The position numbers and the translations under genes are program-made. A DNA stretch of 39,928 bases from an uncultured Collinsella sp. (GTDB lineage Bacteria; Actinomycetota; Coriobacteriia; Coriobacteriales; Coriobacteriaceae). Below, piece after piece: positions 1 to 27,487 of the stretch. A model generated the notes under the pieces. It was not told where the DNA came from. It was given only the letters and a program-made list of their open reading frames with translations, and ran no database searches. The DNA lies in NCBI GenBank assembly GCA_900550735.1, contig URTD01000001.1, positions 1-39,928 of the forward strand. Reading direction: 5' to 3'. The first letter of the stretch is position 1. Every line of letters begins with the position of its first letter.

Positions 1-88
1 GGTCGCGCCCTTGAAGTTGAACGTCAGATTGTCCAAATGCGGCCCGCGCAGCGTCAAGCGGTTACGCGGTTTGGTAAAACCGCGTAAC
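1..88. repeat. Partial copy (cut by the window edge) of a dispersed structured repeat; ends in a 12-bp hairpin abutting the LCP stop codon
   Basis: Gap-free match to the 15559-15697 copy at offset 15609: TTGAACGTCAGATTG (17-31), GCAGCGTCnAGCnGTTAC (48-65) and hairpin GTTACGCGGTTT-ggta-AAACCGCGTAAC (61-88). Confidence 0.8.
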
Positions 89-1324
89 TTAGTAGTTGGC
101 TTCGTAGCCGTTGCCGTCGCCGGTGGGCTCTTCGTAGTAGTCCGAATCGCTCGAATCGCTTGAGTCATCGGAATCGTCAGAGCTGACCGATGAGGTTGCG
201 GTACCGTTTGCGTAGTCGTCAGACGTGTTGTTGTTCAGGTCGCCGATCGTAGAGCTGGAACCGTCGGAAAGACCCATGGTGTTGGGACCCTTGGGATCCT
301 TGCCGGCATCGACGCGCTCCATCATTTCCTTGAGCTCGTCCTCGTAGACAAAGACGTAGCTCACACCGTCGATCATGGTGCTGTCGTCGGCGTACGAGGG
401 CAGGTTGGCCGAGTAGATACCGTCGACATCCATACCGCGCATGGCGTTGACCGTAGCCACGATATCCTGAACGCTCATATCGGTTACAAGCATATCGGAC
501 AGCGAATTAACCAGGCCAAAGATCTTCGTGGCATCGAAGTTATTGAGAATCTGGTTGGCAAGGGCGCCAAGCACCTGACGCTGGTGGCGCATGCGCGTGT
601 AATCGCCGTCGGCATAGGTGTAGCGGCAGCGGGCATAGGTAAGGGCGGTGGCACCGTCCATATGCTGCTGGCCAGCGGTAATCTTAATATCCAGGTGCTC
701 GGGGTCGTCAACATCATCGGTTGCGTTAATGTCGATACCGCCAACCGAATCAATCAGCGCCTGCATACCGTCGAAGCTGACCTCGGCATAGTGGGAAATC
801 TGAACACCGCACAGCTCGTTGACCGCCTCGACCATGGCCTCGGCGCCGCCAACGGTATGGCAGGCGTTGATCTTCATGGTCTCGCCCTTGTACTCGACCT
901 TGGTGTCGCGCGGAACGGAAATGAGCGTCGCCTGCTTTTGCGTGGGGTCGATTCGTGCCAGGATAATCGAGTCGGCGCGATACGTATCCTCGCCCGGACG
1001 GCCGTCGGTGCCAAGAAGCAGCACGTAGAACGGATCCTTTGCCTCATCGGTGTCAACCAGAACCCGACGCAGATTGTCGGTAATGACATTAGAATCGCCG
1101 AGCTTGCCCATAATGGTGGCAAACCACAGGCCGGCAGCGGTAGTGGCACTCAGCAGCACGCCAAGCACGACAATGAGCGCGACGTGACGAATCGTGTGGC
1201 TACGACGGCGTTGGCGAGCGCGCTCGGAATAGCGAGCCACGTTATCGCGACTGTAGATCTTGGCCTGCGCACCAGTTGAGGGTCTTCGGGCGGTGGTATC
1301 CGCGAGGGGCTTTTTATTAAACAT
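89..1324 (-). CDS. LCP (LytR-CpsA-Psr) family cell-wall glycopolymer transferase
   Basis: Basic N-terminus, one TM helix, motifs LLLGTD, RADSI, SVPRD, KINA, YARCR, RMRHQ; Ser/Asp-rich tail. ATG at 1324 preferred over TTG at 1330. Confidence 0.92.
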   Translation of the reverse strand: MFNKKPLADTTARRPSTGAQAKIYSRDNVARYSERARQRRRSHTIRHVALIVVLGVLLSATTAAGLWFATIMGKLGDSNVITDNLRRVLVDTDEAKDPFYVLLLGTDGRPGEDTYRADSIILARIDPTQKQATLISVPRDTKVEYKGETMKINACHTVGGAEAMVEAVNELCGVQISHYAEVSFDGMQALIDSVGGIDINATDDVDDPEHLDIKITAGQQHMDGATALTYARCRYTYADGDYTRMRHQRQVLGALANQILNNFDATKIFGLVNSLSDMLVTDMSVQDIVATVNAMRGMDVDGIYSANLPSYADDSTMIDGVSYVFVYEDELKEMMERVDAGKDPKGPNTMGLSDGSSSTIGDLNNNTSDDYANGTATSSVSSDDSDDSSDSSDSDYYEEPTGDGNGYEANY

Positions 1325-1336
1325 AGGCAACCTGTA

Positions 1337-13851: not shown

Positions 13852-15102
13852 TTAAATACGCTGTTTGGGCTCGGTGACGATGGCTCGAACGATGCGGGGA
13901 CGATCGGTGAGGTCGTGGACGATACGCACGTCCGAAAGGCCTGCCTGGCGACAGAGCTCGGCCGCGGCATCGAGGGCGCCCTCGTAGAGCTCGCAGGCAA
14001 ACAGGCCGCCGGCGCGCAGCATGTAAGGCGCCGCATTGAGCAGGCGGCGGAAGATGTCCAGGCCGTCGGCACCGCCCTCGAGCGCCAAGTCGGGCTCAAA
14101 GTCCTTGACCTCGTGCGGCAGCGAGCGCATGACGCCGGTCGGGATGTAGGGCGGGTTGGAAACGAGCACGTCGAAGGTGCCCCACTCTTCGCGGGGAATG
14201 GAGCTCACCAGGTTGGTGAGACTAAAGGCAACCTCATCTGCCGTGAGGCCGAGCGCGTCGCGGTTTTTGGTGGCCAGATCGATGGCGCGCGGCTCGATAT
14301 CGGTGGCGGTGCAGGTAACGTGGCCGCGGCGCTCCCAGGCAAGGGAGAGCGAGATGCAACCCGTGCCGCAGCCGACCTCGAGAACGCGGGCGATACGGGG
14401 CTCGGCTGGGGCAGGCGCAGCGGCATCCTGAGCCGAAGCCGTCTCCTGGCCGGCACCCTCGATGGCGATGCCGTATTCGTCGAGCTCGGGCTCGGCGTCT
14501 TCCGCGGCTTCGTCTTCTGCTGCCTGCGCGGCGGCTTCCTCGGCCTCGCGGTCGGCCAGCTCCTCGGCATAGGCGCGGCTGCCCAATACGTCGCCGCCTA
14601 GCGCCGCCTCATCGGCAGCCGTCAGGTTAGCGGCACGGCGCTCGGCGGCCGCGCGTTCGTCTGCCAGCGCGGCCTCGGCCTTGCGTGCCTCCTCGACCTC
14701 ATCGTTCCAAGGCAGCTCCACGCGCTGACGGGCAGCAGCCTCGGGGCTCAGCACCTCGGCATCCAGATAATTGAGGACTTCCTCGACGAGCATCTCGGTC
14801 TCGGGGCGCGGAATGAGCACACCGGGGGCGCACGCGACGTCGATCATGCGAAACTGCGTGCTGCCCGTGATGTATTGCAGCGGCTCGCCCTTAGCGCGGC
14901 GGACAACGGCCGCATGCATGGTCTCGAGCTGGGACGCGTTAAGCGTCTCGTCCATACGCATATATAGGTCAATACGCGCCAGGCCCGTGGCGGCGCACAG
15001 CAGCCACTCGGCAGAAAGACGGGGGTGCTCCTCGCCGCGCTCGGCCAGGTACTCCTTGGTCCACTCGAGACAACGCTTGATGGTCCAAATCTCGTTTGCC
15101 AT
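13852..15102 (-). CDS. prmC: Release factor glutamine methyltransferase with a long acidic insertion
   Basis: RRAKGEPLQYITG, VLIPRPETE, EVGCGTG, SNPPY, ALEGGADGL; ATG at 15102 with GAGGGG RBS; next to prfA. Confidence 0.93.
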   Translation of the reverse strand: MANEIWTIKRCLEWTKEYLAERGEEHPRLSAEWLLCAATGLARIDLYMRMDETLNASQLETMHAAVVRRAKGEPLQYITGSTQFRMIDVACAPGVLIPRPETEMLVEEVLNYLDAEVLSPEAAARQRVELPWNDEVEEARKAEAALADERAAAERRAANLTAADEAALGGDVLGSRAYAEELADREAEEAAAQAAEDEAAEDAEPELDEYGIAIEGAGQETASAQDAAAPAPAEPRIARVLEVGCGTGCISLSLAWERRGHVTCTATDIEPRAIDLATKNRDALGLTADEVAFSLTNLVSSIPREEWGTFDVLVSNPPYIPTGVMRSLPHEVKDFEPDLALEGGADGLDIFRRLLNAAPYMLRAGGLFACELYEGALDAAAELCRQAGLSDVRIVHDLTDRPRIVRAIVTEPKQRI

Positions 15103-15493
15103 GGGGCCCTCCCCTCTTAAGCGCCGGACGGCGCGCGAATGTCGGAGCAGATTGTAAGCGAGGCTAGCGCTTGGCAAGGGACGATTGAAGGCGATTATCG
15201 AGAATCAGCCCAGAATTTTGTTTGGATCGCAATCGAAGTGTTCATTCGTCGACGTCTAAATCTGCATCCGTCAAGCTTTTGGCAAGGTTGCCCCAAAACC
15301 GACCAATATCTGACCAAACGCTTGCCACATCGCTTGACGCGCGACGCATCAAAAATCGCCCCGCGACTTCTTGAACGATTTTTCGAGCAATATTTTCAAT
15401 AGCAGATGAAAGCTGTTAATTACTTTGAGCAGGTAGACAGCTTAATTTCTAACAAAACAGATTAAATAAACTCGAAAAGTAATTTACCCAACC

Positions 15494-15525
15494 TAGTCAT
15501 TTAAGAACGTCCCCAATGACTACCT
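15494..15525. repeat. REP-like palindromic repeat, family A (copy 1)
   Basis: TAGTCATT-taagaacgtcccc-AATGACTA-cct; 31/32 identical to 30550-30581. Confidence 0.8.
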
Positions 15526-15558
15526 TGGAAACCCCACAGGTTGAGCATAAGTCAGCGA

Positions 15559-15697
15559 AAACGCCCCTAAGCGAGCAAGGTGACGTGAAAGAGGAGGGAA
15601 GCGTACTTCGGTACGCGACCGACGATTGAACGTCAGATTGCCGCTTAGGGGCGTTTGCAGCGTCGAGCAGTTACGGCGTTTGGTAAAACGCCGTAAC
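15559..15697. repeat. Dispersed structured element (candidate ncRNA or MITE-like repeat)
   Basis: 15-bp stem 15559-15573/15642-15656, inner stems GCAA/TTGC and TGACGT/ACGTCA, apical GCGTAC-TTCG-GTACGC, then a 12-bp hairpin 15670-15697; homologous to 1-88. Confidence 0.8.
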
Positions 15698-16765
15698 TTA
15701 AACAGCCTGCGCCAGCTTCTCGGCTCGCTCGGCGGCGGCGAGCGCCTCGATGACGGTACCGAGCTGATCGCCCAGAAGGACGCCGTTGTAGGTAGAGTTG
15801 AAGCCGATACGGTGATCGGTCACGCGGTCCTGGGGCTGGTTGTAAGTACGGATCTTCTCGGAACGGTTGCCGTGGCCGATCTGGCTCTGGCGCTCGGCAC
15901 CGAGCTCGGCCTGCTGCTTCTCGAGTTCCATCTCGTACAGACGGGCGCGCAGCATCTGCATGCAGACCTCGCGGTTCTGGATCTGGGAACGCTGCTCCTG
16001 CGACTGCACCACGGTGTTGGTGGGCAGGTGGGTGATGCGCACGGCGGAGTAGGTGGTGTTAACGCACTGACCGCCAGGGCCGGAGGCGCAGTAGGTGTCG
16101 ATGCGCAGGTCGGACTGGTTGATCTGGACGTCGATTTCCTCGGCCTCGGGAAGCACGGCTACGGTAGCCGTGGAGGTCTGAATGCGGCCCTGGGACTCGG
16201 TCTTGGGGACGCGCTGGACGCGGTGCACGCCGGACTCGAACTTCATGACGGAGTAAACGCGGTCGCCCTCGACCTTGAACTCAATGGACTTAAAGCCGCC
16301 GGCCTCGCTGGGGCTGGAATCGAGCACGGTGGTCTTCCAGCCGCGCGACTCGCAAAAGCGCTGATACATCTTGTACAGGTCGCCGGCGAAGATGGCCGCC
16401 TCGTCGCCACCGGCGGCGGAGCGAATCTCGACGATGGTGTTCTTGTCGTCGTTGGGGTCGCTCGGAATGAGCATGTACTTGATGTCTTCCTCGAGCTGGG
16501 GGAGCTTGGCCTCGTTTTCGGAGATGTCCATCTGGAGCATCTCCTTCTCATCGGCATCGGTGGTATCGTGCAGCATTTCCTTGGCAGCCTCGATGTCATC
16601 GAGCGCGCCGATGTACTCGCGCGAGGCGGCAATGAGGTCGGACTGGTGCGCGTACTCCTTGTTGAGACGCGTGAACTCCTTGATATCGGAGGCGACGGCC
16701 GGGTCAGAAAGCTTCTTCTCGAGCTCCTCGTAGGCCTTGATAATCTTTTCGAGCTTGTCGCGCAT
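15698..16765 (-). CDS. prfA: Peptide chain release factor 1
   Basis: GGQ motif, PKT (PxT) RF1 specificity motif, ESGVHRVQR, EKIRTYN; AAGGAG RBS. Confidence 0.98.
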   Translation of the reverse strand: MRDKLEKIIKAYEELEKKLSDPAVASDIKEFTRLNKEYAHQSDLIAASREYIGALDDIEAAKEMLHDTTDADEKEMLQMDISENEAKLPQLEEDIKYMLIPSDPNDDKNTIVEIRSAAGGDEAAIFAGDLYKMYQRFCESRGWKTTVLDSSPSEAGGFKSIEFKVEGDRVYSVMKFESGVHRVQRVPKTESQGRIQTSTATVAVLPEAEEIDVQINQSDLRIDTYCASGPGGQCVNTTYSAVRITHLPTNTVVQSQEQRSQIQNREVCMQMLRARLYEMELEKQQAELGAERQSQIGHGNRSEKIRTYNQPQDRVTDHRIGFNSTYNGVLLGDQLGTVIEALAAAERAEKLAQAV

Positions 16766-17049
16766 GGCGGGACTCCTTTATGTGCGTGAAGGCGAAAATC
16801 GGCAGAGTTGATGGGGCGCGCGGCGCCACTGCGGGGGTAAGCCCAGCTAGAACATGTCGATCTTCAGATACATGCGCATCCCTTCGCGTATGAGGTACAT
16901 AGTTGCGGTCTAACCCATACATGATAGCGTGCGCAGGCATACCTGCATATAACCCGCACGGAATGCGACAAAGGGTCAGTCTCTTTCCTTGAATACAACT
17001 TCATCCGAACGCCTCCCGCATTCATCCGCACATATACGGATAAATTTGG

Positions 17050-17513: not shown

Positions 17514-20500
17514 CTACCGGTTCCGGCGCCGCAGGATAACGCCTGCGGCGATCAGCACCACCGCGCCGCCCGCAATGCCACCCAGGGCCATCGGCGACAA
17601 GCTGGTATCGCCCGTATACGGCAGACCCGGCTTCTCCTCCTTCGGCACCGGTGACTTGCTCGGCGGATTGGTGGGCGGCTCCGTCGGCGGGATGGTCGGC
17701 GGCGTGTACGTGTTCTTGAACACCGGCGCCACGGCGCCGTCATAGGTTACCGTCGCCACCAGATGGCCCGCACCGTCGTCCGTCACCGTCACCGTTACCC
17801 GGTGCTCGGCCGCGTCGTACGTCACGTTCTTCTGACCGTCGTCCACCTCGGAGATGCTGTAGGCGTACGTTCCGGGCTTGTCGTACGAGATCGCCTCGAA
17901 GCCCACCGTGCCGTCCGCCGCGTTCTTTGCGGTCTGCAGCACCTTGCCGTCGGCATCCTTCAGCTGGAAGGAGAACTGCCCTTCCTTCAGGTCCTCGCCG
18001 CTCAGCACCTTGGAGGCCCCCAGCTTCACCTCAGTCGCGGCCGGCGCGTAACTGTTGCTGAACGCCACCGCATCCGCAGCCTTGCCGCCCTTGCTGTAGG
18101 CAACCTGCGCCTCCAGCGCGTGCGTCTCCGCATTCTCCGTCACCGTCACCGTCGCGGTAAAGACCGTCGTGTCGTAGGTGACGCCGTTCGCCGTCGCCCC
18201 TGCCCGCTCGGACACGGTGTAGACGTACGTCCCCACCTTGTCCAGCTGCAGCGGCGCGAAGCCGAACGTGCCGTCGGCGCCGTTCTGCACCGTCTGCACC
18301 ACGTTACCGTCGGCGTCCTTCAGGTCGAAGAAGAACTCACCCTCGGCCAGGTCGCGGCCGGTCAGAGCCTTCGTTCCGGTAATCGTCGCCGTCGTTGCCG
18401 TCGGCGTGTAGGTGTTGGTGAAGGTCAGATCCGCAGCCGTCTTGTTCGCCGTCGCGGTCAGCTGGCCGCTGCCGTCATCGGTCACGTTCACCGTTACGTC
18501 CAGCACCGCATCGCTGTAAGTGATGGTGCCATCTTGGCCCGCAACCTCCTTCACCTGGTACGCATGCGAACCAGTTGCGGTGTACGAGATGGCCTTGAAG
18601 GTAAACGCTTTACCCACGTTCGTGGTCCGGTCGATCTCCTGCCCGGTGGCCACGTCAATCAGCGCGAATGTGAACTCGCCATCGGCGGGCGTCCGCGTGG
18701 TGGCCGGGTCGGCATTCTCAAGCACCTTGGTGCCAGAGATCTGGTAGGAGGTCTGACCCGGCTGGTAGCTGTTCGCAAACGTCATGGTATTGGGGGTGAC
18801 GCCGTTCTCGGTGCCCTCGCTCGGTTTCACCGTAGAGCTCTCTACCACCAGCTTGCCGTCGTTGTTGTCCTTCACCACGTAGGTCAGGGTGTACGTCTTG
18901 CCGGTGTAGGTCACGCCCGGCACGCCCGGCGCGTCGTCCGTCGGCTGCACCTCGCGGACCGTGTAGGTAAAGGTGCCCGCATGGTCGAAGGTCAGCTTGT
19001 CGAAGGCAACCTTACCGTCGGCATCGTTCTTCTGGGTCTGGATCACCGAGCCGTCAGACCCCATCAGCTCGAAGGCGAAATCTCCCGCCTTTAGCTGATA
19101 GCTGCCGTCGTGCACGTTAACGCTCTTGGTGAGGGCGATCGCACCGGAGTCCGTCGCCTGTGCCTCGTAGGTGTTGGTGAAGGTGGGCTTCGTGGCGTCC
19201 GTACCGTCGTAGGCGACGCTCGCCTGCAGCGTGCCGGCATTGTCCGCAACCGTCACCACGGCATGGTGCACCGCGGCGTCGTAGGTCACGTAGGCCAGAT
19301 CGCCCTTCCGCTCAACGATGGTGTACTCGTGCGTGCCCGGCTTCGCGTAGGAGAAGGCGTCGAAGCCGACGCTTCCGTTCGTGTCGTTGGTCGCGGTCCG
19401 GACGGGATTGGCCTCGGCAAGCTGCTCAGCCGTCAGGTTGCCCTCGTACACATCGAAGGTGAACTCGCCGCCCTTGAGTACGATCGGCGTGTTGTCGTCC
19501 TTCTTCACGTAGCTCTTCTGCGCACCGAGGGCCAGGCCGGTCGCGGCCGGCTGGTAGGTGTTGGTGAAGGTCTCCGGGCCGGATGTGCTCGTCACGATCG
19601 CCTTCGCATTCAGTGCTCCGTTCCCGCCGTCTGTGACCTTCACCGTGTAGGTGAGCGCATGGGTGTCGTAGACCATGCCCGGCTCCGCGCCCGGCTGCTC
19701 CACGATGGTGTAGGTGAAGTCCTTGCTCGCGGCGCCGTCCAAGTCGGAGAGCTGGAACTCGCGCGTGAAGCTGACCTTGCCGTTTGCATCGTTCTTCGCG
19801 GTGTCGAGCACGTTGCCGGCAGCGTCCTTCAAGTCGAAGGTGAACTCGCCGTCCGTGGGCTTCGTCGTGTGGTCGAAGCCGTCCGCAACCTTGATGGTCT
19901 TAGTCGCCGTCAGGGTTACGGAACCCTTTGCGTCGTAGGTGTTATTGAAGGTGGGAGCCGTAGCGGTACCGTCATAGGTGACGGTCACCTTCGTCTTGTT
20001 GTTATCGTCCTGGTTCTGCTCTACCTTGACGTGGACCTTGACTTCCTTGGCGTCGTAGACCACGCCGTCAACGGTCTGGCCGGCTTTCTCCTCCTTGAGC
20101 GTGTAGTCGTACTCGCCCAGGTTCAGGTTCTCGACGGCCAGCTTGACGTTGCCGCCCCGGTCGTTGGTGCCCTTGGCGACCTCGTTGCCGGCCTGGTCGT
20201 ACAGGCCGAAGGCGAACGCGCCGCCCGTCAGCGCCTTGCCCGTGAGGGTCTTCGTCGCCTCGACGGTTGCACCGGCCGTCGGCTTCGCGTTGGTGAAGGT
20301 CGGCACGGCCCTATCGCCGCCGTAGGTGGCGACCGCCTTTAGCGTGCCGTTCTTGTTATCAGTGACCCTAACGTGCACGTTCACCGTCTTGCCGTCGTAC
20401 ACGACGGTCGAGTCGTTGCCGGCAACCTCCTTGATGGTGTAGTCGTGATCGCCCGGAGTGTCGTAGCCGATTGCCTGGAAGGTAATGTTGCCGTCCTTGT

Positions 20501-23500
20501 CATTCGCGACGGTCTCAATGGGCGTGCCTTCCGCCTTGTCACCCTTGTACAGAGCGAACGAGAAGTCGCCCCCTGCGAGCTCACCGCCCGTGAAGTGCTT
20601 CTTCGCCTTGAGCGTTACCGAGGTCCCCTTCGGGTGGTACGTGTTCGTGAAGGTCTTCGAGTTGTCTTCACTCGTTACCTGCGGCGTGGCCGTCAGCGTG
20701 CCGGTGCCATCGTCCGCGACCGTCACCTTGTAGGTGAGGGCATGGTTGTCATAGACCATGCCGGCCTCCGCGCCCGGCTTCTCCGCGATGGTGTAGGTGA
20801 AGTCCTTGCTCGCGGCGCCGCCCAGGTCGGCGAGCTCGAAGTGGCGCGTAAAGCTGATCTTGCCATCGGCCTTATTCGTCGTGGTGGCGAGCACCTTGCC
20901 GTCGGCGTCCTTCAGCTCGAACGTGTACTCGCCGCCCTTCAGCTTGGTGTCGTGCGTGAAGCCCGGCGCGACCGCAACGACCTTGGTCGCCGTCAGCTCC
21001 ACGGATCCCTTTGCGGTGTAGGTGTTCGTGAAGGTGGGGGCATCGGCCTTGTCACCATCGTAGGCAACGGCGGCGTCCAGCTTACCAGCTTTGTCCACGA
21101 CCTTCACCACGGCGTGGTGCACCGCGTCGTCGAAGGTCACGTGGGACAGGTCGCCCTTCTTCTCCACGATGGTGTACTTGTACTCGCCGGCCTTGGTGTA
21201 GTTGATGGCCGGGAAGGTGACGGTACCGTCCTCGCCGTTCTCGGCGCTCCGGATGGGTTGCTTGCCCTTCAGCTGCTCAGCCGTCAGATCGCCCTCGTAC
21301 AGGTCGAAGGCGAACTCGCCGCCCTTGAGCGCAGCCGGCGTGCTGTCGGACTTCACGTAGGCCTTCTTCGCCGCGAGCGCCACCGAGGTCCCGGCGGGCT
21401 GGTACTTGTTGGTGAAGGTCGGGATATCGTTCTTGCCGTCGTAAGTGACGGTCGCCTTCGCCTTGTCGCCCTCCGCCTTCACCGAGACGTGAACCCTCAC
21501 CTCCGTGGAATCGTAGGTGATGGTCGAGTCGCTGCCAGCGACCTCCTTGAGCGTGTAGTCGTACTCGCCCAGGTTCAGGTTCTCGACGGCCAGCTTGACG
21601 TTGCCGCCCCGGTCGTTGGTGCCCTTGGCGACCTCGTTGCCGGCCTGGTCGTACAGGCCGAAGGCGAACGCGCCGCCCGTCAGCGCCTTGCCCGTGAGGG
21701 TCTTCGTCGCCTCGACGGTTGCACCGGCCGTCGGCTTCGCGTTGGTGAAGGTCGGCACGGCCCTATCGCCGCCGTAGGTGGCGACCGCCTTTAGCGTGCC
21801 GTTCTTGTTATCAGTGACCCTAACGTGCACGTTCACCGTCTTGCCGTCGTACACGACGGTCGAGTCGTTGCCGGCAACCTCCTTGATGGTGTAGTCGTGA
21901 TCGCCCGGAGTGTCGTAGCCGATTGCCTGGAAGGTAATGTTGCCGTCCTTGTCATTCGCGACGGTCTCAATGGGCGTGCCTTCCGCCTTGTCACCCTTGT
22001 ACAGAGCGAACGAGAAGTCGCCCCCTGCGAGCTCACCGCCCGTGAAGTGCTTCTTCGCCGCCAGGGTCACGGAACCCTTCGCAGCATAGCTGTTGATAAA
22101 GGTGGCGAGGTTCACCTTGCCATCCTTGACCTCAGCCTTGATGGGCTTGGCCTCAGCGTCACCATCCTTCTTCACCGTCACGCCCGTGACGGTCAGCTTG
22201 GCGTCCACGTCCTCCACCGTCACCGTGGCGGTGTAAGCGGAGGCGTCCATCGTCCAGCCGGCGTTCTGCACGCCGTCCACCACCGCGTCGTCATCGGCGT
22301 CGTGCGCCTCGGAAAGCGTGAACGTGTATGTACCGGCCTTGTTGAACTTCATGCCGGAGAAGTCGACCGTCTGGCCGTCCTTACCTGTGATCGCGCCCTT
22401 CGTGGCCCGGGACTCCGCATGCGCGTCGCCCGCCAGGTCATCCGACACCGTCAGGTCGCCGGCAGCGATCTTCGCCTGCATGTCCGACGTGGCAGCCAGC
22501 GTGAACGAGAACTCCTTGTCCGTGCTCTCGGTGCCGGAAACCTTCTTCGTTACCTGTGGGGTCAGTTTGTCGCTGGCTTCCGCCGTGTAAGTGTTGGTAA
22601 ACACCAGCTTGTTGGCTTCGGCCAACGTGCCGTCGGTATTTTGCTTCGCGATCTTACCGGTGACGCTATCGCCTGCGTCCTTCAGATCCGTGGCACCCTG
22701 CTTGCGGCCGGTCAGCTTATAGCCCGCGGGCATCTGTTCTGCGCCGGTCAGCTCCTGCACCGTGTACTCGTCGCCCTCGCTAAGACCGTACACGCGAATC
22801 GTCTCGTCGGCCTTGATGGTTTGTGAATAGCCGTTCGTCAGGTTGAACACGTTGCCGACCCGCCGCTCGCCCGCAGTCCCCGCCTTCTCGAACACTGCAG
22901 CCTTGTAGGTCTTCCCCTCGGGCACGGTGAACTTGAAGGTGAACTTCGCGTCCTTATTGCCCGTCAGTCCCTTCGGCACCACGACATGCTTGGTCACTTC
23001 GAGGCTCGCCTCGCGCTTGTTAGCCACGCGCACACAGGTGGCACCCGTGAACAGGGCATTCAGGTTCATGTCGCCCAGATTGGCACGGGCACCTTTCGAC
23101 GTGGTCCCCTTGGGCCGCTCGTCCTGGGTGATACCCATACGTATCCAGCCCGTCTCGGTCTCCAGGCGGTAGGGTTTGCCCTCCTCGGTGGGCCCATACT
23201 GGTACATGCGTCCGTTAGCGCCGTACTTGAGGCGCACTGTGTCGTCTGCACCCACGGGTTCGACATCGGTCCACGTCAGGTTGCCGTTATCATTGGTCTC
23301 GCCATTCGAGGTCTGCCGCGTACCTTTGATCCACGTAAGCGTGTTGTCGATGTCGCCCTCTGCGCCAAACTGGCCCAGACTCTTCATGAGCGCGCCCGGG
23401 CCCACGAACGTCGAAACGCCGTCATCGTCCGTACCAGCATCGGCATGGACGCCGTAATCGTCCACAATCACCTTGGTGAGCGTGTCGTTAAGCAGGAAGC

Positions 23501-25874
23501 CCTTGGGAGCCGAGACCTCCTTTAGGAAGTAAGTTCCATTCACGAGCGGCATGTTACCGGCGCTTGTATTCGGGAATATGCCCGCACCTTCGAGCGGGAC
23601 CGGGTTGCCGACCGACCCCGTCGTCAGGGTGTCGTAGGGGGTCTGCTCGCCCTTGAGCACGACCTTGCCGTTCGCGTCTGTTGTCACCTGATCGGCCGTG
23701 TACAGGCCGAACTTCGCGCCGTCTACGGGGTTGCCCTCGGTATCGGTCTTCTGCACGAACAGGCGATTCTGGATGTTCGTGACGAGCAAGCGCGTGGCGA
23801 ACTGTCGCTTGAAGTTCGTGCCGTCTGCGATGTCGTCGCTGTACACGTGGACGGTGTTCTCGGGCGTCGCGTCGCCGATCGAGCTCGCCGTTGTGTGGTA
23901 GATGGCCACCGTGTACTCGGCATCCTTGCGGGCATCACCGCTCAGCAGGTAGTAGTACTTGGAGATGTCACCGGGCAGATTTTGAATCTCTACCTGGTAC
24001 TGGCCGCTTGTGTTGAGCGTGAAGGCGTGCAGGTCCTTCTTCGCCGCCTCGATAGCACCGGTCATGCCCGGCTCCTTGGCGAGGGTGTATCCCGCTCCCG
24101 TCGATGGGTCGCCCGACACGGCGTACCAATTGCTCGGATCTTTGATACCTGCGTCTGGGCTTTTGTCGCGCTTGAGCACCACAGCGAACAGTATGCCGGA
24201 GTCCAGATTGACGGTCTTGTCGGACTTCGTCAGGTCATTATTTGCCTTGTACACGGTCAACGGCGCGGTGATGGTCTCCTTCGCGGCGGCGAACGCACCG
24301 GTCTTCCACACGACGCTGCCCGCATCCATACCGCCGCGGTTGATGATGACGCCGCCCGCGCCGTTCTCAGCGCTCGCGGGCACGTACTCGAGCTGCATGC
24401 TGCCGCCCGTCGCCGTGAGACTCGAGCGGTATCCCTCGGGCATGTGCGTCTCCTTCAGGAGGTAGTACTTGTTGTCGTGATTCTTGTTGTAGAGATCGTC
24501 GAAGTTGATGACGCCGTTGTCATCGTCGTTCGTGAGCGTTAGGTGGCCGGCCTCGTCCGTGGTGCCAGAGCCGAGAAGCGCGTTCTCGTTATTGGTCGTA
24601 TCTGTAAATTTCCCGTCTGTTTTGTACAGCGCGAACTCGGCACCCTGTACGAACTTGCCGTCCTGGTCGAACTTGATGATGTCGGACTCGGGCACCGTCA
24701 CGAGGTTGAACTTGAGCTCCATGTTGGAGTCGGTAGCGCCGCGCTCCAGGTAGAAGAACTTGAGGGTGTGGTTGGTGTCGTCGGCGAAGGTGTTGTCGGC
24801 AAATCCCGAAATGTCCTTATTCGCCTCTTGGTACTTGCTCTTCAGCGTGCCGTTGTATTTGTCGTTTACCTTAATGTCGCCCGTATGAAAGTTGATGCTC
24901 AGACTCGCGCGGTTGTGAATACCGCCGATATCACCCACGAGGACATCATCGATGAACACCCAGACGTCATCATCGCCGGCGAACTCGAAGGTCATGTCAT
25001 TATTATTGTTCGTCAGGCCGCCCTTGGGCTGCACGAATCGCGTGGACATTGAGAGACCGAAGTGGTGGTTGACGGGTTTGCCGCCGTTGTAGCGCGAATC
25101 ACCGGTGTTGTCTGCCTTGATGCCGGTTTGGACGAGCTGGCCGTTTTCCTCTTTGAACACCTTGTCTGCCGCGTCGAACGGGAAGAACTGACCCTGGTGG
25201 GACGAATCGCCCACTTTGTCAATGCCCCAGGTGTTATAGATGTCGAAGGCATTCTTGTCAGCGTTGTAGGCTGCGTAGTTTTCGGAGCTGTCATAGACGT
25301 AGTAGCCGCCCTGAACCTTGAGGAGGCCCGTCACGCCAAAATGGGACGTCTTGCCGGTCTGGGCAGAGGAATCGAACAGGTAGCGGAGGGACTCGTCGCC
25401 CAAGGCTTCGGAAAGCTTCGGGTAGCCGTCTGAAAGCGTGTTGTTGACGATGTCGGGCCGCGGGCTCGTGCCGCCCGTCCATTGGTTGAGCGCCCCATCA
25501 CCCTTGCCGTCGTTAAACTGGAACTTGTGGCCTGCGTTGACGCCGCCGCTGCCGGAAACCGACAGATGGTCATCGGGATTCACCCAGTAATCAAACAGGT
25601 TGATCGTCGTCCCCGAGGGCGAGGTCGTCGGAACCGTGTGGTCGGAGATCGCCGCCTCGGCACGAAGCGGCAGGAAGAAGCTCGCCGTCAGCGCGACGGC
25701 GAGGGCCAGAACAATCGCATATGGCGAGGCCGGGCGCAGCCCACGACGACGGCCATAAGACATGACGGACCACCGCTCGCGCGGCCGGTGTTCACCAGGA
25801 AGTTCCCTGCTTAGACACCCCCCCCCGGTAGCAATATTCACGAGTCGAGACGTCGTCTCTCTGAGCTCCTGCAT
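17514..25874 (-). CDS. Giant sortase-anchored surface adhesin (2786 aa): fibro-slime/PA14-like head, SpaA/CnaB-like and FctA/Spy0128-like repeats, LPXTG anchor
   Basis: ATG 25874 after GGGGAGG; signal peptide ending AEA; FEFAGDDDVWVFID...DIGGIH...FFYLERG; many K...YTIxE...FTNTY repeats; Pro-rich linker, LPYTG, TM helix, RRRNR. Confidence 0.92.
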   Translation of the reverse strand: MQELRETTSRLVNIATGGGCLSRELPGEHRPRERWSVMSYGRRRGLRPASPYAIVLALAVALTASFFLPLRAEAAISDHTVPTTSPSGTTINLFDYWVNPDDHLSVSGSGGVNAGHKFQFNDGKGDGALNQWTGGTSPRPDIVNNTLSDGYPKLSEALGDESLRYLFDSSAQTGKTSHFGVTGLLKVQGGYYVYDSSENYAAYNADKNAFDIYNTWGIDKVGDSSHQGQFFPFDAADKVFKEENGQLVQTGIKADNTGDSRYNGGKPVNHHFGLSMSTRFVQPKGGLTNNNNDMTFEFAGDDDVWVFIDDVLVGDIGGIHNRASLSINFHTGDIKVNDKYNGTLKSKYQEANKDISGFADNTFADDTNHTLKFFYLERGATDSNMELKFNLVTVPESDIIKFDQDGKFVQGAEFALYKTDGKFTDTTNNENALLGSGTTDEAGHLTLTNDDDNGVINFDDLYNKNHDNKYYLLKETHMPEGYRSSLTATGGSMQLEYVPASAENGAGGVIINRGGMDAGSVVWKTGAFAAAKETITAPLTVYKANNDLTKSDKTVNLDSGILFAVVLKRDKSPDAGIKDPSNWYAVSGDPSTGAGYTLAKEPGMTGAIEAAKKDLHAFTLNTSGQYQVEIQNLPGDISKYYYLLSGDARKDAEYTVAIYHTTASSIGDATPENTVHVYSDDIADGTNFKRQFATRLLVTNIQNRLFVQKTDTEGNPVDGAKFGLYTADQVTTDANGKVVLKGEQTPYDTLTTGSVGNPVPLEGAGIFPNTSAGNMPLVNGTYFLKEVSAPKGFLLNDTLTKVIVDDYGVHADAGTDDDGVSTFVGPGALMKSLGQFGAEGDIDNTLTWIKGTRQTSNGETNDNGNLTWTDVEPVGADDTVRLKYGANGRMYQYGPTEEGKPYRLETETGWIRMGITQDERPKGTTSKGARANLGDMNLNALFTGATCVRVANKREASLEVTKHVVVPKGLTGNKDAKFTFKFTVPEGKTYKAAVFEKAGTAGERRVGNVFNLTNGYSQTIKADETIRVYGLSEGDEYTVQELTGAEQMPAGYKLTGRKQGATDLKDAGDSVTGKIAKQNTDGTLAEANKLVFTNTYTAEASDKLTPQVTKKVSGTESTDKEFSFTLAATSDMQAKIAAGDLTVSDDLAGDAHAESRATKGAITGKDGQTVDFSGMKFNKAGTYTFTLSEAHDADDDAVVDGVQNAGWTMDASAYTATVTVEDVDAKLTVTGVTVKKDGDAEAKPIKAEVKDGKVNLATFINSYAAKGSVTLAAKKHFTGGELAGGDFSFALYKGDKAEGTPIETVANDKDGNITFQAIGYDTPGDHDYTIKEVAGNDSTVVYDGKTVNVHVRVTDNKNGTLKAVATYGGDRAVPTFTNAKPTAGATVEATKTLTGKALTGGAFAFGLYDQAGNEVAKGTNDRGGNVKLAVENLNLGEYDYTLKEVAGSDSTITYDSTEVRVHVSVKAEGDKAKATVTYDGKNDIPTFTNKYQPAGTSVALAAKKAYVKSDSTPAALKGGEFAFDLYEGDLTAEQLKGKQPIRSAENGEDGTVTFPAINYTKAGEYKYTIVEKKGDLSHVTFDDAVHHAVVKVVDKAGKLDAAVAYDGDKADAPTFTNTYTAKGSVELTATKVVAVAPGFTHDTKLKGGEYTFELKDADGKVLATTTNKADGKISFTRHFELADLGGAASKDFTYTIAEKPGAEAGMVYDNHALTYKVTVADDGTGTLTATPQVTSEDNSKTFTNTYHPKGTSVTLKAKKHFTGGELAGGDFSFALYKGDKAEGTPIETVANDKDGNITFQAIGYDTPGDHDYTIKEVAGNDSTVVYDGKTVNVHVRVTDNKNGTLKAVATYGGDRAVPTFTNAKPTAGATVEATKTLTGKALTGGAFAFGLYDQAGNEVAKGTNDRGGNVKLAVENLNLGEYDYTLKEEKAGQTVDGVVYDAKEVKVHVKVEQNQDDNNKTKVTVTYDGTATAPTFNNTYDAKGSVTLTATKTIKVADGFDHTTKPTDGEFTFDLKDAAGNVLDTAKNDANGKVSFTREFQLSDLDGAASKDFTYTIVEQPGAEPGMVYDTHALTYTVKVTDGGNGALNAKAIVTSTSGPETFTNTYQPAATGLALGAQKSYVKKDDNTPIVLKGGEFTFDVYEGNLTAEQLAEANPVRTATNDTNGSVGFDAFSYAKPGTHEYTIVERKGDLAYVTYDAAVHHAVVTVADNAGTLQASVAYDGTDATKPTFTNTYEAQATDSGAIALTKSVNVHDGSYQLKAGDFAFELMGSDGSVIQTQKNDADGKVAFDKLTFDHAGTFTYTVREVQPTDDAPGVPGVTYTGKTYTLTYVVKDNNDGKLVVESSTVKPSEGTENGVTPNTMTFANSYQPGQTSYQISGTKVLENADPATTRTPADGEFTFALIDVATGQEIDRTTNVGKAFTFKAISYTATGSHAYQVKEVAGQDGTITYSDAVLDVTVNVTDDGSGQLTATANKTAADLTFTNTYTPTATTATITGTKALTGRDLAEGEFFFDLKDADGNVVQTVQNGADGTFGFAPLQLDKVGTYVYTVSERAGATANGVTYDTTVFTATVTVTENAETHALEAQVAYSKGGKAADAVAFSNSYAPAATEVKLGASKVLSGEDLKEGQFSFQLKDADGKVLQTAKNAADGTVGFEAISYDKPGTYAYSISEVDDGQKNVTYDAAEHRVTVTVTDDGAGHLVATVTYDGAVAPVFKNTYTPPTIPPTEPPTNPPSKSPVPKEEKPGLPYTGDTSLSPMALGGIAGGAVVLIAAGVILRRRNR
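20090..20607. repeat. 518-bp intragenic direct repeat, copy 1
   Basis: Matches 21542-22059 (offset 1452); main-frame and alternative-frame translations are identical. Confidence 0.9.
21542..22059. repeat. 518-bp intragenic direct repeat, copy 2
   Basis: Matches 20090-20607. Confidence 0.9.
25818..25826 (-). repeat. G9 homopolymer in the adhesin leader
   Basis: Nine C on the plus strand, read as GGG GGG GGG (Gly-Gly-Gly) at codons 17-19. Confidence 0.9.
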
Positions 25875-26059
25875 AATTTCCTCCCCAGTCACACGACGAC
25901 CCGCCCGGGCGCTCCCCGGGGGCCGAAACAGTCTGGCACATGCCCGCAGTCGTTCAAGGAATACCAACCCCAGCATATGTCTCTCAAGATATTTTAGCTT
26001 TTTATATAACAGTTTTCGTCTCATTACCGATGAAATCGGCTCAGCCCCTTTGTCGCATT

Positions 26060-27487
26060 CTAGAGCGTGTGGAGCAGGGCGATGAGAAAGCGGATGCCTT
26101 GGAGGTAGGCGCGACGGGTGACGCGCTCGTTGGTGCCGTGGACGCCGCGGTCGCATTCGTCATCGTCGACCACAAAGGCGGAGAAGCGGATGCACTCGTG
26201 GCAAATGCGCTGGTAGTTGGCGGCATCGGTTGCGCCAATCACGGTCGAGGGCACGATGCTCATCGGCTCTTGGCCCACCGCAGACGATCCGTTTTCCTCC
26301 GTCGGCTTGGGATCACGGAAATAGCGGGCGGCGATGGCGCGGACGGCCTCGAGCCCCGGACCGCCCACGCGCGGGGACGGCGAGGGCTCGGAGCTGCCGA
26401 GGCCCAGCTCGACCTCGACTCGGCCGGCGAGCCCAGCGGTGGCAACGGCCTCGCGGCAGCAGGCCACGACATCGGCCACGCTCGTACCCTCGAGCATGCG
26501 GAAGTTGATATTGACCCACATATCTTGCGGCATTACGTTGGCACCGGTACTGCCGCCCTCGATTTGCGTGGGCGCACAGGTGGTGGTCACAAGCGGGTAC
26601 AGCTTTTTGCTGGCAAGGCAGTCGCGCACGATGGCATCCTTGCTGGCAGCAATCTCGTCTGCGGTATAAAGCCCCAGCTCGACGAGCTGCGCGGCAAGCA
26701 GATCGGTCACACGCGCCGGCCACTCGATATCGCAAATCGCGGCAATAGCGCGGCTGAGCACTTCGAGCGACGTGCCACCGTAAGGGTTGGAAGAATGCCC
26801 GCCCTCGCTCTTCGTCCTGAGCACGATATCGGCATAGCCCTTCTCGGCAAGATCGGCATGCATAAGCCAACCCTCGCCTGCGCCGTACTCGGCAGCCTCA
26901 ACGATACGATAGTCACCCTCGTCAATCAGGTACTCAAGCTCAACGCCGCGCTCCTCGAGCACGCGGCCAATGGCACCCGCGCCGCACTGCGTGGTCTCCT
27001 CATCCTGGCCAAAGGCGAGGAGCAGCGTGCGCTCGTGCTGCCAACCGTGCGCCAGCGCATACTCAACCGCCTCGAGAATGCCTGCGACTTGGTCTTTCAT
27101 GTCGATGGCGCCGCGGCCCCAAATGTAGGCATCGTCCACATGTCCGCTAAAGGGGGCGTGCGTCCAATCGTCCTCGGTGCCCGGCACCACGGGAACCACG
27201 TCCATGTGGCCCATGAGCATAATGGGCTTGAGGGCAGGGTCGGAACCGCTAAGCGTCACCAATAGCGAATGATCGATAAGCTCGACCTCGCCCGCCGCGA
27301 ACACGTGCGGCCAAGCCTGCTGCATATACGCGCGCAGGTCGTCGAACGGCTGCCAGTCCACCGCCTCGGCATCCATGCTCGAAATGGTCGGAAACGACAG
27401 CACACGGCCCAGGCGCTCGCATGCGCCGGCCTTGTCCAAATCGGCAAAATCGTCCTCATGCGCAAAGAAGCGCCAAACCTCGGCCAT
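26060..27487 (-). CDS. M20 family metallopeptidase/amidohydrolase
   Basis: GHMDVVP, WGRGAIDMK, QDEE, DEG, GGHSS, ATDA, VHGTNE metal-binding motifs. Confidence 0.93.
   Translation of the reverse strand: MAEVWRFFAHEDDFADLDKAGACERLGRVLSFPTISSMDAEAVDWQPFDDLRAYMQQAWPHVFAAGEVELIDHSLLVTLSGSDPALKPIMLMGHMDVVPVVPGTEDDWTHAPFSGHVDDAYIWGRGAIDMKDQVAGILEAVEYALAHGWQHERTLLLAFGQDEETTQCGAGAIGRVLEERGVELEYLIDEGDYRIVEAAEYGAGEGWLMHADLAEKGYADIVLRTKSEGGHSSNPYGGTSLEVLSRAIAAICDIEWPARVTDLLAAQLVELGLYTADEIAASKDAIVRDCLASKKLYPLVTTTCAPTQIEGGSTGANVMPQDMWVNINFRMLEGTSVADVVACCREAVATAGLAGRVEVELGLGSSEPSPSPRVGGPGLEAVRAIAARYFRDPKPTEENGSSAVGQEPMSIVPSTVIGATDAANYQRICHECIRFSAFVVDDDECDRGVHGTNERVTRRAYLQGIRFLIALLHTL

Follow-up and report, generated by a model that had tools for sequence, protein, structure and literature searches.

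Why does a long, strongly folded stretch of DNA stand directly at the end of prfA in an uncultured Collinsella sp., and what might it do there? We addressed this question in a window of 39,928 nucleotides, the whole stretch of DNA analysed (contig URTD01000001.1, forward strand), which holds one full and one partial copy of the structure. Because prmC is the next gene downstream of prfA and lies on the same strand, the full copy sits within the prfA-prmC gene pair. We consider it probable, if only just, that the element is a REP/BIME-like composite palindromic repeat located in 3'-UTR or intercistronic RNA, that it is transcribed with the gene at whose end it is docked, and that its hairpins act on this transcript.

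The full copy is built from the parts listed in Table 1. The left motif exists in a few kinds, ..CGCAGGTTGAGNNNNNN and ..CGATGTTTTGGCAACGN among them, and likeness among copies stops approximately 20-25 nt to the left of CAGCGA, the GC of which pairs with the GC of the linker. Within the long hairpin, a variable 15-bp outer stem is followed by a purine-purine mismatch block (CAAGGTG/CAGATTG), a middle stem and a tandem G.A block (GUGAAA/UUGAAC); the core reads GAAAGAGGAG...GACGATTGAA, and C(UUCG)G forms the apex. Unit length is about 145-170 nt, and the element ends, CGCAGGTTGAG.. and ..CGTAAC, are not inverted repeats. Folding of the + strand of 15550-15705 gave −84.8 kcal/mol (z −10.4), with none of 200 shuffles as good, and the predicted structure reproduces the multi-stem fold proposed in the preliminary description of this DNA: the outer stem, of 15 bp, leads through purine-rich internal loops to a C(UUCG)G apex, and a 13-bp hairpin stands apart. 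The − strand of the same region gave −74.8 kcal/mol (z −10.5).

Table 1. Positions in the window of the two element copies, their parts and the neighbouring features.
Feature	Position	Strand	Basis or remark
Full composite repeat copy	15535-15697		left motif + CAGCGA + long hairpin + linker + small hairpin
Left motif CACAGGTTGAGCATAAGT	15535..15552	+	comparison of copies
CAGCGA, conserved 5' flank of long hairpin	15553..15558	+	near-invariant in 18 own copies, kept in G026
Long hairpin, 98 nt	15559..15656	+	fold, covariation
Linker GCAGCGTCGAGCA (= GCAGCGTCGAGC in overview)	15657..15669	+	kept in all full copies
Small hairpin GTTACGGCGTTTGGTAAAACGCCGTAAC, 28 nt, 12-13 bp	15670..15697	+	covariation; 7/12 pairs changed on both sides
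prfA (RF-1)	15698..16765	-	Pfam PCRF + RF-1; TAA stop 15698-15700 touches small hairpin
prmC-like methyltransferase	13852..15177	-	Pfam PrmC_N + MTS; next gene downstream of prfA
Copy of other repeat family, TAGTCATTTAAGAACGTCCCCAATGACTA	15494..15522	.	beside element, not part of it
Second copy, right half of long hairpin, other subfamily	1..47	+	cut by contig start
Second copy, outer arm GTCCAAATGCGGCCCGC	31-47	+	comparison with full copies
Second copy, linker (48-60) and small hairpin (61-88)	48..88	+	
LCP gene (LytR_cpsA_psr)	89..1336	-	domain match; TAA stop 89-91 touches small hairpin

The second copy is cut at the start of the window, position 1 of which is also position 1 of the contig, and its upstream arm lies beyond the assembled contig. 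Window positions 1-91 align without gaps to 15610-15700 with 62 of 91 identical, and identity differed by part, from 11/13 in the linker and 24/28 in the small hairpin to only 6/17 in the outer arm. These values bear out the initial claim of a gapless second copy with a diverged outer arm and a kept linker, and the two compensated pair swaps said to separate the small hairpins of the two copies are present as described. A complementary arm had also been predicted about 35-50 nt upstream of position 1. This prediction holds because the arm, with one bulged base, is carried both by the orthologous locus of genome G046, which has the same right half and a left arm GCGGGTTGCATTTGAGAC 35-52 nt upstream of the base matching window position 1, and by a contig end of the source genome (C58:10630-10742), where a left half of this subfamily occurs with GCGGGCCGCATTTGAGAC. 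The left flank of the C58 locus is not conserved among genomes.

A covariance model, used to search for copies in the source genome (G000, a 1.85-Mb draft), returned 43 matches (best E 6e-33), four of which were the other strand of the same hairpin, leaving about 39 places. All callable copies were intergenic, some stood in tandem (e.g. at C88 and C49), and no split or gene-bearing copies occurred among the matches in this genome. Matches were present in 23 of 24 genus-mates, with at least 20-52 each; the covariance-model scan gave no match in genus-mates G015, G118 and G148, and only one to four matches each in G014, G090, G108, G113 and G190. Across the order, 54 of 149 high-quality Coriobacteriales genomes matched (27/31 in family f1, 23/32 in f3 and 3/31 in f6), so that the family extends to at least two further families. 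In one of these, genome G026 carries 54 copies of the same build, including CAGCGAGCG, GAAAGAGG..GATTGAA and CGCGCAGCGTC, with the linker in the form CGCGCAGCGTCAT. Thus the element is dispersed and multicopy, as had been suspected from two copies. Collinsella and other Coriobacteriales are common human gut bacteria.

The Rfam search called for at the outset found no family that matches the element: Rfam 15 gave no match to the whole window at gathering score and none to region 15400-15800 at E up to 10, and eight copy-bearing loci gave just mir-789, MIR1883 and YrlA, all far below gathering. Phage records held no match, and among plasmid records the only match lay in one 900-kb Collinsella record, which bears core genes. 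Full-text literature searches on Collinsella, Eggerthella and Coriobacteriia yielded no account of an intergenic repeat family, although the candidate lists of PMC8040213 may hold the element. The family is therefore absent from any database or literature searched, and it resembles the REP/BIME kind, which is itself already known.

Comparison of copies revealed compensated pair changes in the stems and conservation of loops and linkers, in agreement with the preliminary description. In a plain MAFFT alignment of 18 copies from the source genome, RNAalifold recovered 37 pairs, 23 of them with compensatory changes. In a set of 64 distinct copies, drawn from 58 Collinsella loci, pairing was kept in 97.3% of cells, a level that none of 500 shuffles reached, compared to 78.1% in shuffles and 29-42% in slid controls, and 28 of 43 pairs had changed on both sides. 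The modules (outer, middle, apical and small hairpin) occur in free combination from copy to copy, and 17 copies of the source genome display 16 different outer arms. The family provides a natural collection of hairpins in which stems are free and mismatches fixed, useful for probing repeat function. Such covariation could also arise without an RNA role, through mutual conversion of the arms of a DNA palindrome.

Both copies in the window abut a minus-strand TAA (TTA on the + strand), confirming the LCP gene and prfA as docking sites, and this placement is general. Of 27 copies examined in the source genome, 19 were callable, and in 18 of these an ORF on the opposite strand has its stop −1 to +7 nt from the small-hairpin end, the nineteenth copy lying at +18. 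Relatives gave 51 of 53 callable copies docked at −1 to +7 nt (65 examined), and in the independently annotated C. aerofaciens sequence NZ_OY725717.1 all ten full copies lie at −1 to +4 nt. Docking occurs at core genes whose order is conserved (including prfA, lysS, tyrS, rpoC and queA), and the family marks dozens of them at a fixed distance from their ends.

A target preference for TA or TAA, which had been suggested for a possible mobile element, did not survive this comparison. Docked stops comprised 12 TAG and 7 TAA in the source genome and 35 TAG and 18 TAA in relatives, a mix that mirrors genome stop usage (TAG 0.48, TAA 0.44, TGA 0.08). Moreover, the left flanks of copies have no constant TA, no clean target duplication was seen at the two loci compared, and one copy is docked 5 nt from a tRNA-Gly gene. 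Since translation plays no part at a tRNA gene, this copy also counts against a translation-based role.

Stranded RNA-seq data were available as two runs from another strain, whose prfA is followed by a different variant; since reads align to many copies, depth over the element sums over loci. With this multi-copy mapping, the element had 553-665 gene-sense and 136-179 antisense reads, a ratio of about 3.7 to 1, compared to about 650 gene-sense and 9-80 antisense for prfA. RNA depth dropped about 8-fold across the region (multi-copy reads, other strain), reaching about 73 at 15369-15435, and then climbed over prmC. A promoter-like site lies on the − strand at 15419-15392, and element-bearing RNA contigs exist in runs X1 and X2. 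The only signal of the terminator scan lay on the gene-sense strand at the foot of the long hairpin, where GGGGCG is followed by TTTTCGCTGA; it is limited to variants whose stem base is AAA/TTT. A U-tract is lacking at the small hairpin on both strands, which counts against the reading favoured here. A canonical terminator, where present, lies beyond the element.

We propose that the two very stable hairpins would act on the transcript as a barrier to 3' exonucleases, as a partial terminator or cistron insulator, or as both. Since the first hairpin starts inside the ribosome footprint at the stop codon, the hairpins may also slow termination, as reported for REPs of E. coli (PMC12306157). Many REPs of that species are described as standing no more than 15 nt from a stop codon (PMC12306157), and REPs in this position are reported to stall ribosomes and reduce translation (Liang et al. 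2015, via PMC12306157).

Comparison of the element with known repeat families revealed both resemblance and difference. As with REP and BIME sequences, which are multicopy extragenic mosaics of palindromes and short linkers found in 3' or intercistronic RNA and variable among strains at fixed loci, the 39 places of the source genome hold a modular and sometimes tandem element that is transcribed with its neighbouring gene (gene-sense depth 553-665, from multi-copy reads of another strain). In contrast, a REP unit measures 20-40 nt, whereas the element has hairpins of 98 and 28 nt; only a fraction of REP copies dock at gene ends, whereas nearly all copies of the element dock in a single orientation, −1 to +7 nt from the gene end; and the element stems differ from copy to copy, with no RAYT gene flanked by the family. 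A strict RAYT-associated REP would be a 20-40 nt hairpin with a conserved 5' tetranucleotide, whereas the unit of the element measures about 145-170 nt. REPIN-RAYT systems share with the element a long hairpin of two inverted arms, persistence in a lineage and single-copy Y1-type genes in the same genomes, but the arms of the element are not REP hairpins, the RAYT-like genes adjoin another repeat, and G026 has no PF01797 match. ERIC/IRU and Correia (NEMIS) elements fold in RNA and are described as having orientation-dependent effects on mRNA. These MITEs are, like the element, imperfect palindromes of 100-170 nt in transcribed intergenic DNA, but they have conserved terminal inverted repeats and TA duplications, whereas the element has no inverted repeats at its ends, showed no duplication at the two loci compared and has hypervariable stems.

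Copies turn over at orthologous sites. At the prfA site, the element is present in 24 of 27 readable genus-mates, with three long-hairpin types in six, nine and eight genomes, and is absent from three distant species; sites without the element, which the preliminary description had recommended seeking, thus exist. The LCP site is filled in all 27 alignable loci, again with three types (14, 9 and 4 genomes), and two other loci (C8 and C93) have filled, hairpin-less and element-free alleles. Such alleles, together with different variants at orthologous sites, remnants nested beside new copies in the prfA site comparison and the many copies at contig ends, by which the family breaks assemblies, are all as expected if the element were purely selfish DNA, either a non-autonomous hairpin transposon or an enzyme-recognised DNA palindrome, with no RNA role. 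Arm-to-arm conversion or the needs of an enzyme would keep the arms complementary, consistent with near-unique outer stems that are nevertheless perfectly paired (16 arms in 17 copies), and the purine-purine mismatches are kept on one strand, as if one DNA strand were read as a fold. We regard this explanation as doubtful, while giving it serious weight. Mere tolerance of insertions would not place copies as tightly as within 7 nt of gene ends. Orientation tracks the adjoining gene, not the replichore: two copies in the complete genome G021 depart from the replichore-like strand pattern, and both still accord with their neighbouring gene, unlike what replication-coupled single-strand transposition would produce. 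The element-free alleles at C8 and C93 differ across the whole spacer, with no clean target-site duplication.

A search for a partner gene also argues against selfish DNA. For the element itself, the search turned up no transposase, no terminal inverted repeats and no target duplication. The source genome contains three RAYT-like ORFs, two of which (C135 and C120) are flanked by the other, GGGGAC-type repeat family, and no repeat was seen beside the third (C125). Four loci with Y1 genes gave no match to the element model at E below 0.09, and the 54-copy genome G026 gave no match to PF01797. On these grounds we rejected Y1/RAYT genes as the partner. Under the favoured reading of a repeat acting on the transcript, copies may still spread and replace one another through non-autonomous transposition or inter-copy gene conversion, with crossovers that would fall in the conserved loops and linkers.

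The data show that the family is dispersed in many copies, is built from modules whose pairing is conserved, keeps one position and orientation at gene ends, is transcribed mainly in gene sense and turns over at orthologous sites. The strand that folds better is the gene-antisense one, in 17 of 17 copies of the source genome (by a mean of 12 kcal/mol) and in 61 of 62 copies of relatives, and mismatches favour the same strand (G.U 43 vs A.C 24; G.A/A.G 25 vs C.U 6). This counts against the 3'-UTR reading, and the conflict with the transcribed strand is a puzzle, both concrete and testable. One broader proposal, which we hold to be unlikely, is that the element is a lineage-wide 3'-end module read as a fold. 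Either a hairpin in the stop-codon ribosome footprint of dozens of core genes would couple termination to mRNA fate across Coriobacteriales, or the antisense-strand fold with its conserved tandem G.A pairs would be recognised by a structure-specific enzyme. Its substrate would be cDNA, antisense RNA or single-stranded DNA, and it would install and exchange modules at gene ends.

The same strand asymmetry speaks for the view that each copy is a + strand small RNA gene that ends at the small hairpin and converges on the neighbouring gene, since that strand is the better folding one in nearly every copy (17/17 and 61/62); the UUCG apex and the tandem G.A motifs are on it as well. The element also has a greater antisense depth (136-179, rising to 420 over 15503-15569) than prfA (9-80), but these counts can be inflated by the palindromic arms and the adjoining multicopy repeat, and gene-sense reads still exceed antisense reads by about 3.7 to 1. 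No conserved −10/−35 pair occurs in any of the several variants of the left motif, the promoter scan detected no site directly before the element on the + strand, where its only hit (15171-15198) falls within prmC at a distance of 355 nt upstream, and the stranded RNA-seq table lists no discrete starts or ends inside the element. We therefore consider such a gene very improbable, and the earlier notion of a stand-alone + strand ncRNA is not supported, on two of these points, the lack of a conserved promoter in the left motif and the predominance of − strand reads.

Integron attC sites have a core motif GTTRRRY, which the GTTACGC of the small hairpin does not fit. The least probable alternative, and a very remote one, is a structure-read, attC-like recombination site or a retro-mobile cassette copied from mRNA 3' ends into cDNA. 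Such copying would account both for the tie to the direction of transcription and for the better antisense (cDNA-sense) fold. This alternative agrees with free stem sequences, kept structure and unpaired bases, a fixed position directly after ORFs in a single orientation and different variants at one site, but the docked genes are core genes in conserved order rather than cassettes, with no cassette array or integron context.

Several narrower assignments were rejected. Inspection by eye for a group II intron remnant or an IS200/IS605 end showed no GUGYG-type start, domain V-like hairpin or Y1 link. Core-only copies occur in both orientations, which counts against the favoured reading. A riboswitch or 5'-leader reading of them was dismissed because, while some precede a start codon, most follow an opposite-strand stop, and because the orientation of the core-only copy at the cysS site differs between species. 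The small hairpin is not an independent dispersed terminator, since it occurs without the linker and long hairpin at only about 3 of 25 small-hairpin loci.

Two other features deserve mention. Collinsella-1 RNA (RF01700) is likewise structured and non-coding and belongs to the same genus; it gave no match at the element, scoring above cut-off in G000, G021 and G003 as a single copy away from it (at G000:C94:1795-1989, 203 bits, in the source genome). The TAGTCATTTAAGAACGTCCCCAATGACTA repeat family, which also flanks RAYT-like genes in the source genome, lies beside or inside many element copies.

At 15535-15697 the window contains a complete composite repeat, built of a left motif, CAGCGA, a long hairpin, a linker and a small hairpin, and the last base of the small hairpin directly precedes the TTA that is the minus-strand TAA stop of prfA. 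Predicted folding energies for the region were -84.8 (+ strand) and -74.8 kcal/mol (- strand), both about 10 SD beyond dinucleotide shuffles. Positions 1-88 contain the right half of another copy, belonging to a different subfamily, which terminates at the TAA of the LCP gene and aligns without gaps to 15610-15697, with identity of 11/13 in the linker and 24/28 in the small hairpin and a mostly different outer arm (6/17). The preliminary description of both copies was accurate. On the predicted + strand structure, the conserved "loops" can be read as helical, with purine-purine mismatches holding them together: GUGAAA/UUGAAC would form a tandem G.A pair in the long hairpin, and in the commonest core GA/AG steps would recur between Watson-Crick pairs. 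A very long ORF (2880 aa; 17514-26156, minus strand) adjoins prfA.

Features of the composite repeat, genes docked by full copies and positions of core-only copies
Feature	Position or members	Strand
Left motif	15535-15552	+
CAGCGA	15553-15558	+
Long hairpin, 98 nt	15559-15656	+
Linker GCAGCGTCGAGCA	15657-15669	+
Small hairpin, 28 nt	15670-15697	+
Docked genes, NZ_OY725717.1	M20 peptidase, SDR oxidoreductase, queA, hexose kinase, lacB	
Docked genes, NZ_OY725717.1	lysS, D-2-hydroxyacid dehydrogenase, tyrS, DAHP synthase, rpoC	
Core-only copies, own genome (G000)	G000:C74:2404-2503, C46:7191-7288, C90:6880-6980, C69:595-695, others	
Core-only copies, NZ_OY725717.1	580479, 664907, 408975, 471510	

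Comparison of copies revealed that structure is conserved and sequence is not. RNAalifold applied to a plain MAFFT alignment of 18 copies from the same genome predicted 37 pairs, of which 23 showed compensatory changes. Across 64 distinct copies taken from 58 Collinsella loci, a set biased in that the loci came from a motif scan and the alignment was fitted to the model, standard pairs filled 97.3% of cells versus 78.1% in shuffles (0/500 reaching it), both partners had changed in 28 of 43 pairs (491 cells), and pairing in slid controls was 29-42%. Among 17 own copies there were 16 different outer arms, each with a matching partner arm. The many combinations of outer stem, middle stem, apex and small hairpin point to exchange of modules, with crossovers probably falling within conserved loops and linkers.

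The source genome is a draft (218 contigs, 1.85 Mb, 81.5% complete) in which the window forms the start of its contig. It yielded 31 nhmmer matches, 42 after two rounds, and a covariance model built from 17 full own copies (R1) found 43 matches representing 39 places, because four matched the opposite strand of a hairpin already counted. Many copies were situated at contig ends, as expected since a repeat breaks assemblies. With the best 76 candidates scored per genome, 23 of 24 genus-mates gave at least 20-52 matches each; one genome had no match and one had three. When 185,579 species genomes were scanned with a motif, at least 119 stretches were returned; among the matches listed, nearly all were titled Collinsella. 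Across the order, matches with E no higher than 1e-6 occurred in 54 of 149 high-quality genomes, distributed over the own family (27/31), a second (23/32), a third (3/31) and a fourth (1/9), with no match in the other families of the order sampled. In G026, a genome of the second family, the 54 matches shared this build and its conserved single-stranded motifs, with an extra spacer preceding the small hairpin.

The element is docked at the ends of opposite-strand genes. ORFs were called by third-position GC, a crude method. Of 27 own copies examined, 19 were callable, and in 18 of these the small-hairpin end lay -1 to +7 nt from an opposite-strand stop, the other lying at +18; the same held for 51 of 53 callable copies from relatives (65 examined). 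Independent annotation of C. aerofaciens NZ_OY725717.1 placed all ten full copies examined, a count that leaves out two partial matches, -1 to +4 nt from an opposite-strand CDS stop. The proposed preference for TAA was not borne out, since the docked stops (12 TAG and 7 TAA in the own genome, 35 TAG and 18 TAA in relatives) compare with genome usage of 0.48 TAG, 0.44 TAA and 0.08 TGA. The absence of TGA is a weak signal because the copies are not independent. The same crude caller counted 455 TAG, 419 TAA and a rare TGA (77/951) among own-genome ORFs of at least 150 aa. A tRNA-Gly(GCC) gene is followed at 5 nt by one full copy (G000:C212:241-316 and 322-468), so docking is at gene ends and not at stop codons alone. 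Alleles that carry the element and alleles that lack it have the native stop at the identical codon, so the protein is untouched. In G021, a complete genome, the strands of 28 strong copies formed two replichore-like blocks, and both exceptions still followed the neighbouring gene; orientation is therefore tied to that gene.

Full copies contain all five parts. Core-only copies number about ten in the own genome and consist of the long hairpin alone, which has a conserved outer stem of its own and the purine block on the opposite arm (5' side AGATTG, 3' side AAGGTG). In the divergent genus-mate G014, all matches covered the long hairpin only (model positions 7-107). Core-only docking was less strict: three of four copies in NZ_OY725717.1 docked like full copies and one lay in the gene's sense. 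Spacers within the gene pairs cysS-rlmB, amtB-P-II, map-infA and copper ATPase/HMA protein are occupied by core-only hairpins, and the copy in the cysS-rlmB spacer differs in orientation between NZ_OY725717.1 and the own genome.

Orthologous sites demonstrate gain, loss and replacement of the element. At prfA it was present in 24 of 27 readable genus-mates, with three long-hairpin types (6, 9 and 8 genomes, plus one too short for typing), small-hairpin variant and junction length shuffled independently of that type, and a remnant of an older left motif persisting in some alleles; the three species lacking it have a prfA 89-92% identical. The LCP site was occupied in 27/27 alignable loci by three types (14, 9 and 4), including two alleles without the left half and one tandem. 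At the locus on contig C8, ten genomes matched straight through the element, six had an element-free spacer of 68-111 nt and 11 had an unrelated stretch of ~1.85 kb in its place. At the locus on contig C93, nine genomes matched through the element and 27 gave two flank pieces just tens of bases apart; some aligned alleles lacked the small hairpin, one the long hairpin and some both. Element-free alleles at C8 and C93 differed across the whole spacer, and comparing alleles with and without the element at these two loci we saw no target duplication. Solo left motifs (..CTTATGCTCAACCTG..) where hairpins are absent (L272 and L311 of genome G003, at the C8 and C93 loci, respectively) and CAGCGA joined directly to the small hairpin at C8:27012 look like footprints of hairpin loss.

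Two stranded RNA-seq runs from a different strain under the same species label, which carries a different variant after prfA, were mapped onto 14900-16900. Depth over prfA was ~650 gene-sense and 10-80 antisense; over the element, where reads pool many copies, it was 553-665 versus 136-179. The element is chiefly transcribed as a continuation of the upstream gene. Gene-sense depth dropped to ~73 at 15369-15435 and recovered over prmC, which is preceded by a promoter-like site (15419-15392); judged from depth, most prfA transcripts seem to stop within the element or just beyond. The antisense-to-gene strand nevertheless folds better in 17/17 own copies (mean 12 kcal/mol) and 61/62 copies from relatives, and mismatch classes also favour it (G.U 43 versus A.C 24; G.A 25 versus C.U 6). 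No explanation offered covers both the better antisense fold and the direction of transcription.

A role at the RNA 3' end is most likely. The element is closest in kind to the transcribed extragenic palindromes of the REP/BIME class, whose E. coli copies within 15 nt of a stop are reported to stall ribosomes (as described in PMC12306157). The element differs from these in its size, nested modular helices, near-universal docking in one orientation and hypervariable stems, and in having no RAYT partner. A Y1/RAYT partner was rejected: of the three RAYT-like genes in the own genome, those on contigs C135 and C120 have a second, GGGGAC-type repeat family on their flanks, and no repeat was visible next to the remaining one. 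Collinsella-1 RNA was rejected as single-copy and located elsewhere (RF01700; one strong copy, G000:C94:1795-1989, 203 bits). A lone terminator hairpin was rejected too. Searches of the window and of loci holding copies matched no Rfam family, and the phage collection searched gave no match.

The second repeat family (TAGTCATT..GGGGACG..AATGACTA), often in inverted doublets and with one copy at 15494-15522, adjoins or sits inside many copies of the element. Because it flanks two of the three RAYT-like ORFs (PF01797, HUH plus C-terminal HTH; G000:C135, C120), it looks like a classic REP/REPIN-RAYT system. NZ_OY725717.1 (899,693 bp), titled "plasmid 6", carries rpoC, lysS, tyrS, ribosomal protein genes and infA and looks like a chromosome piece labelled plasmid. 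On it, 97 nt separate the left end of the copy at 459329 from the end of an IS110-family transposase gene, and a further two copies have IS21 genes between them.
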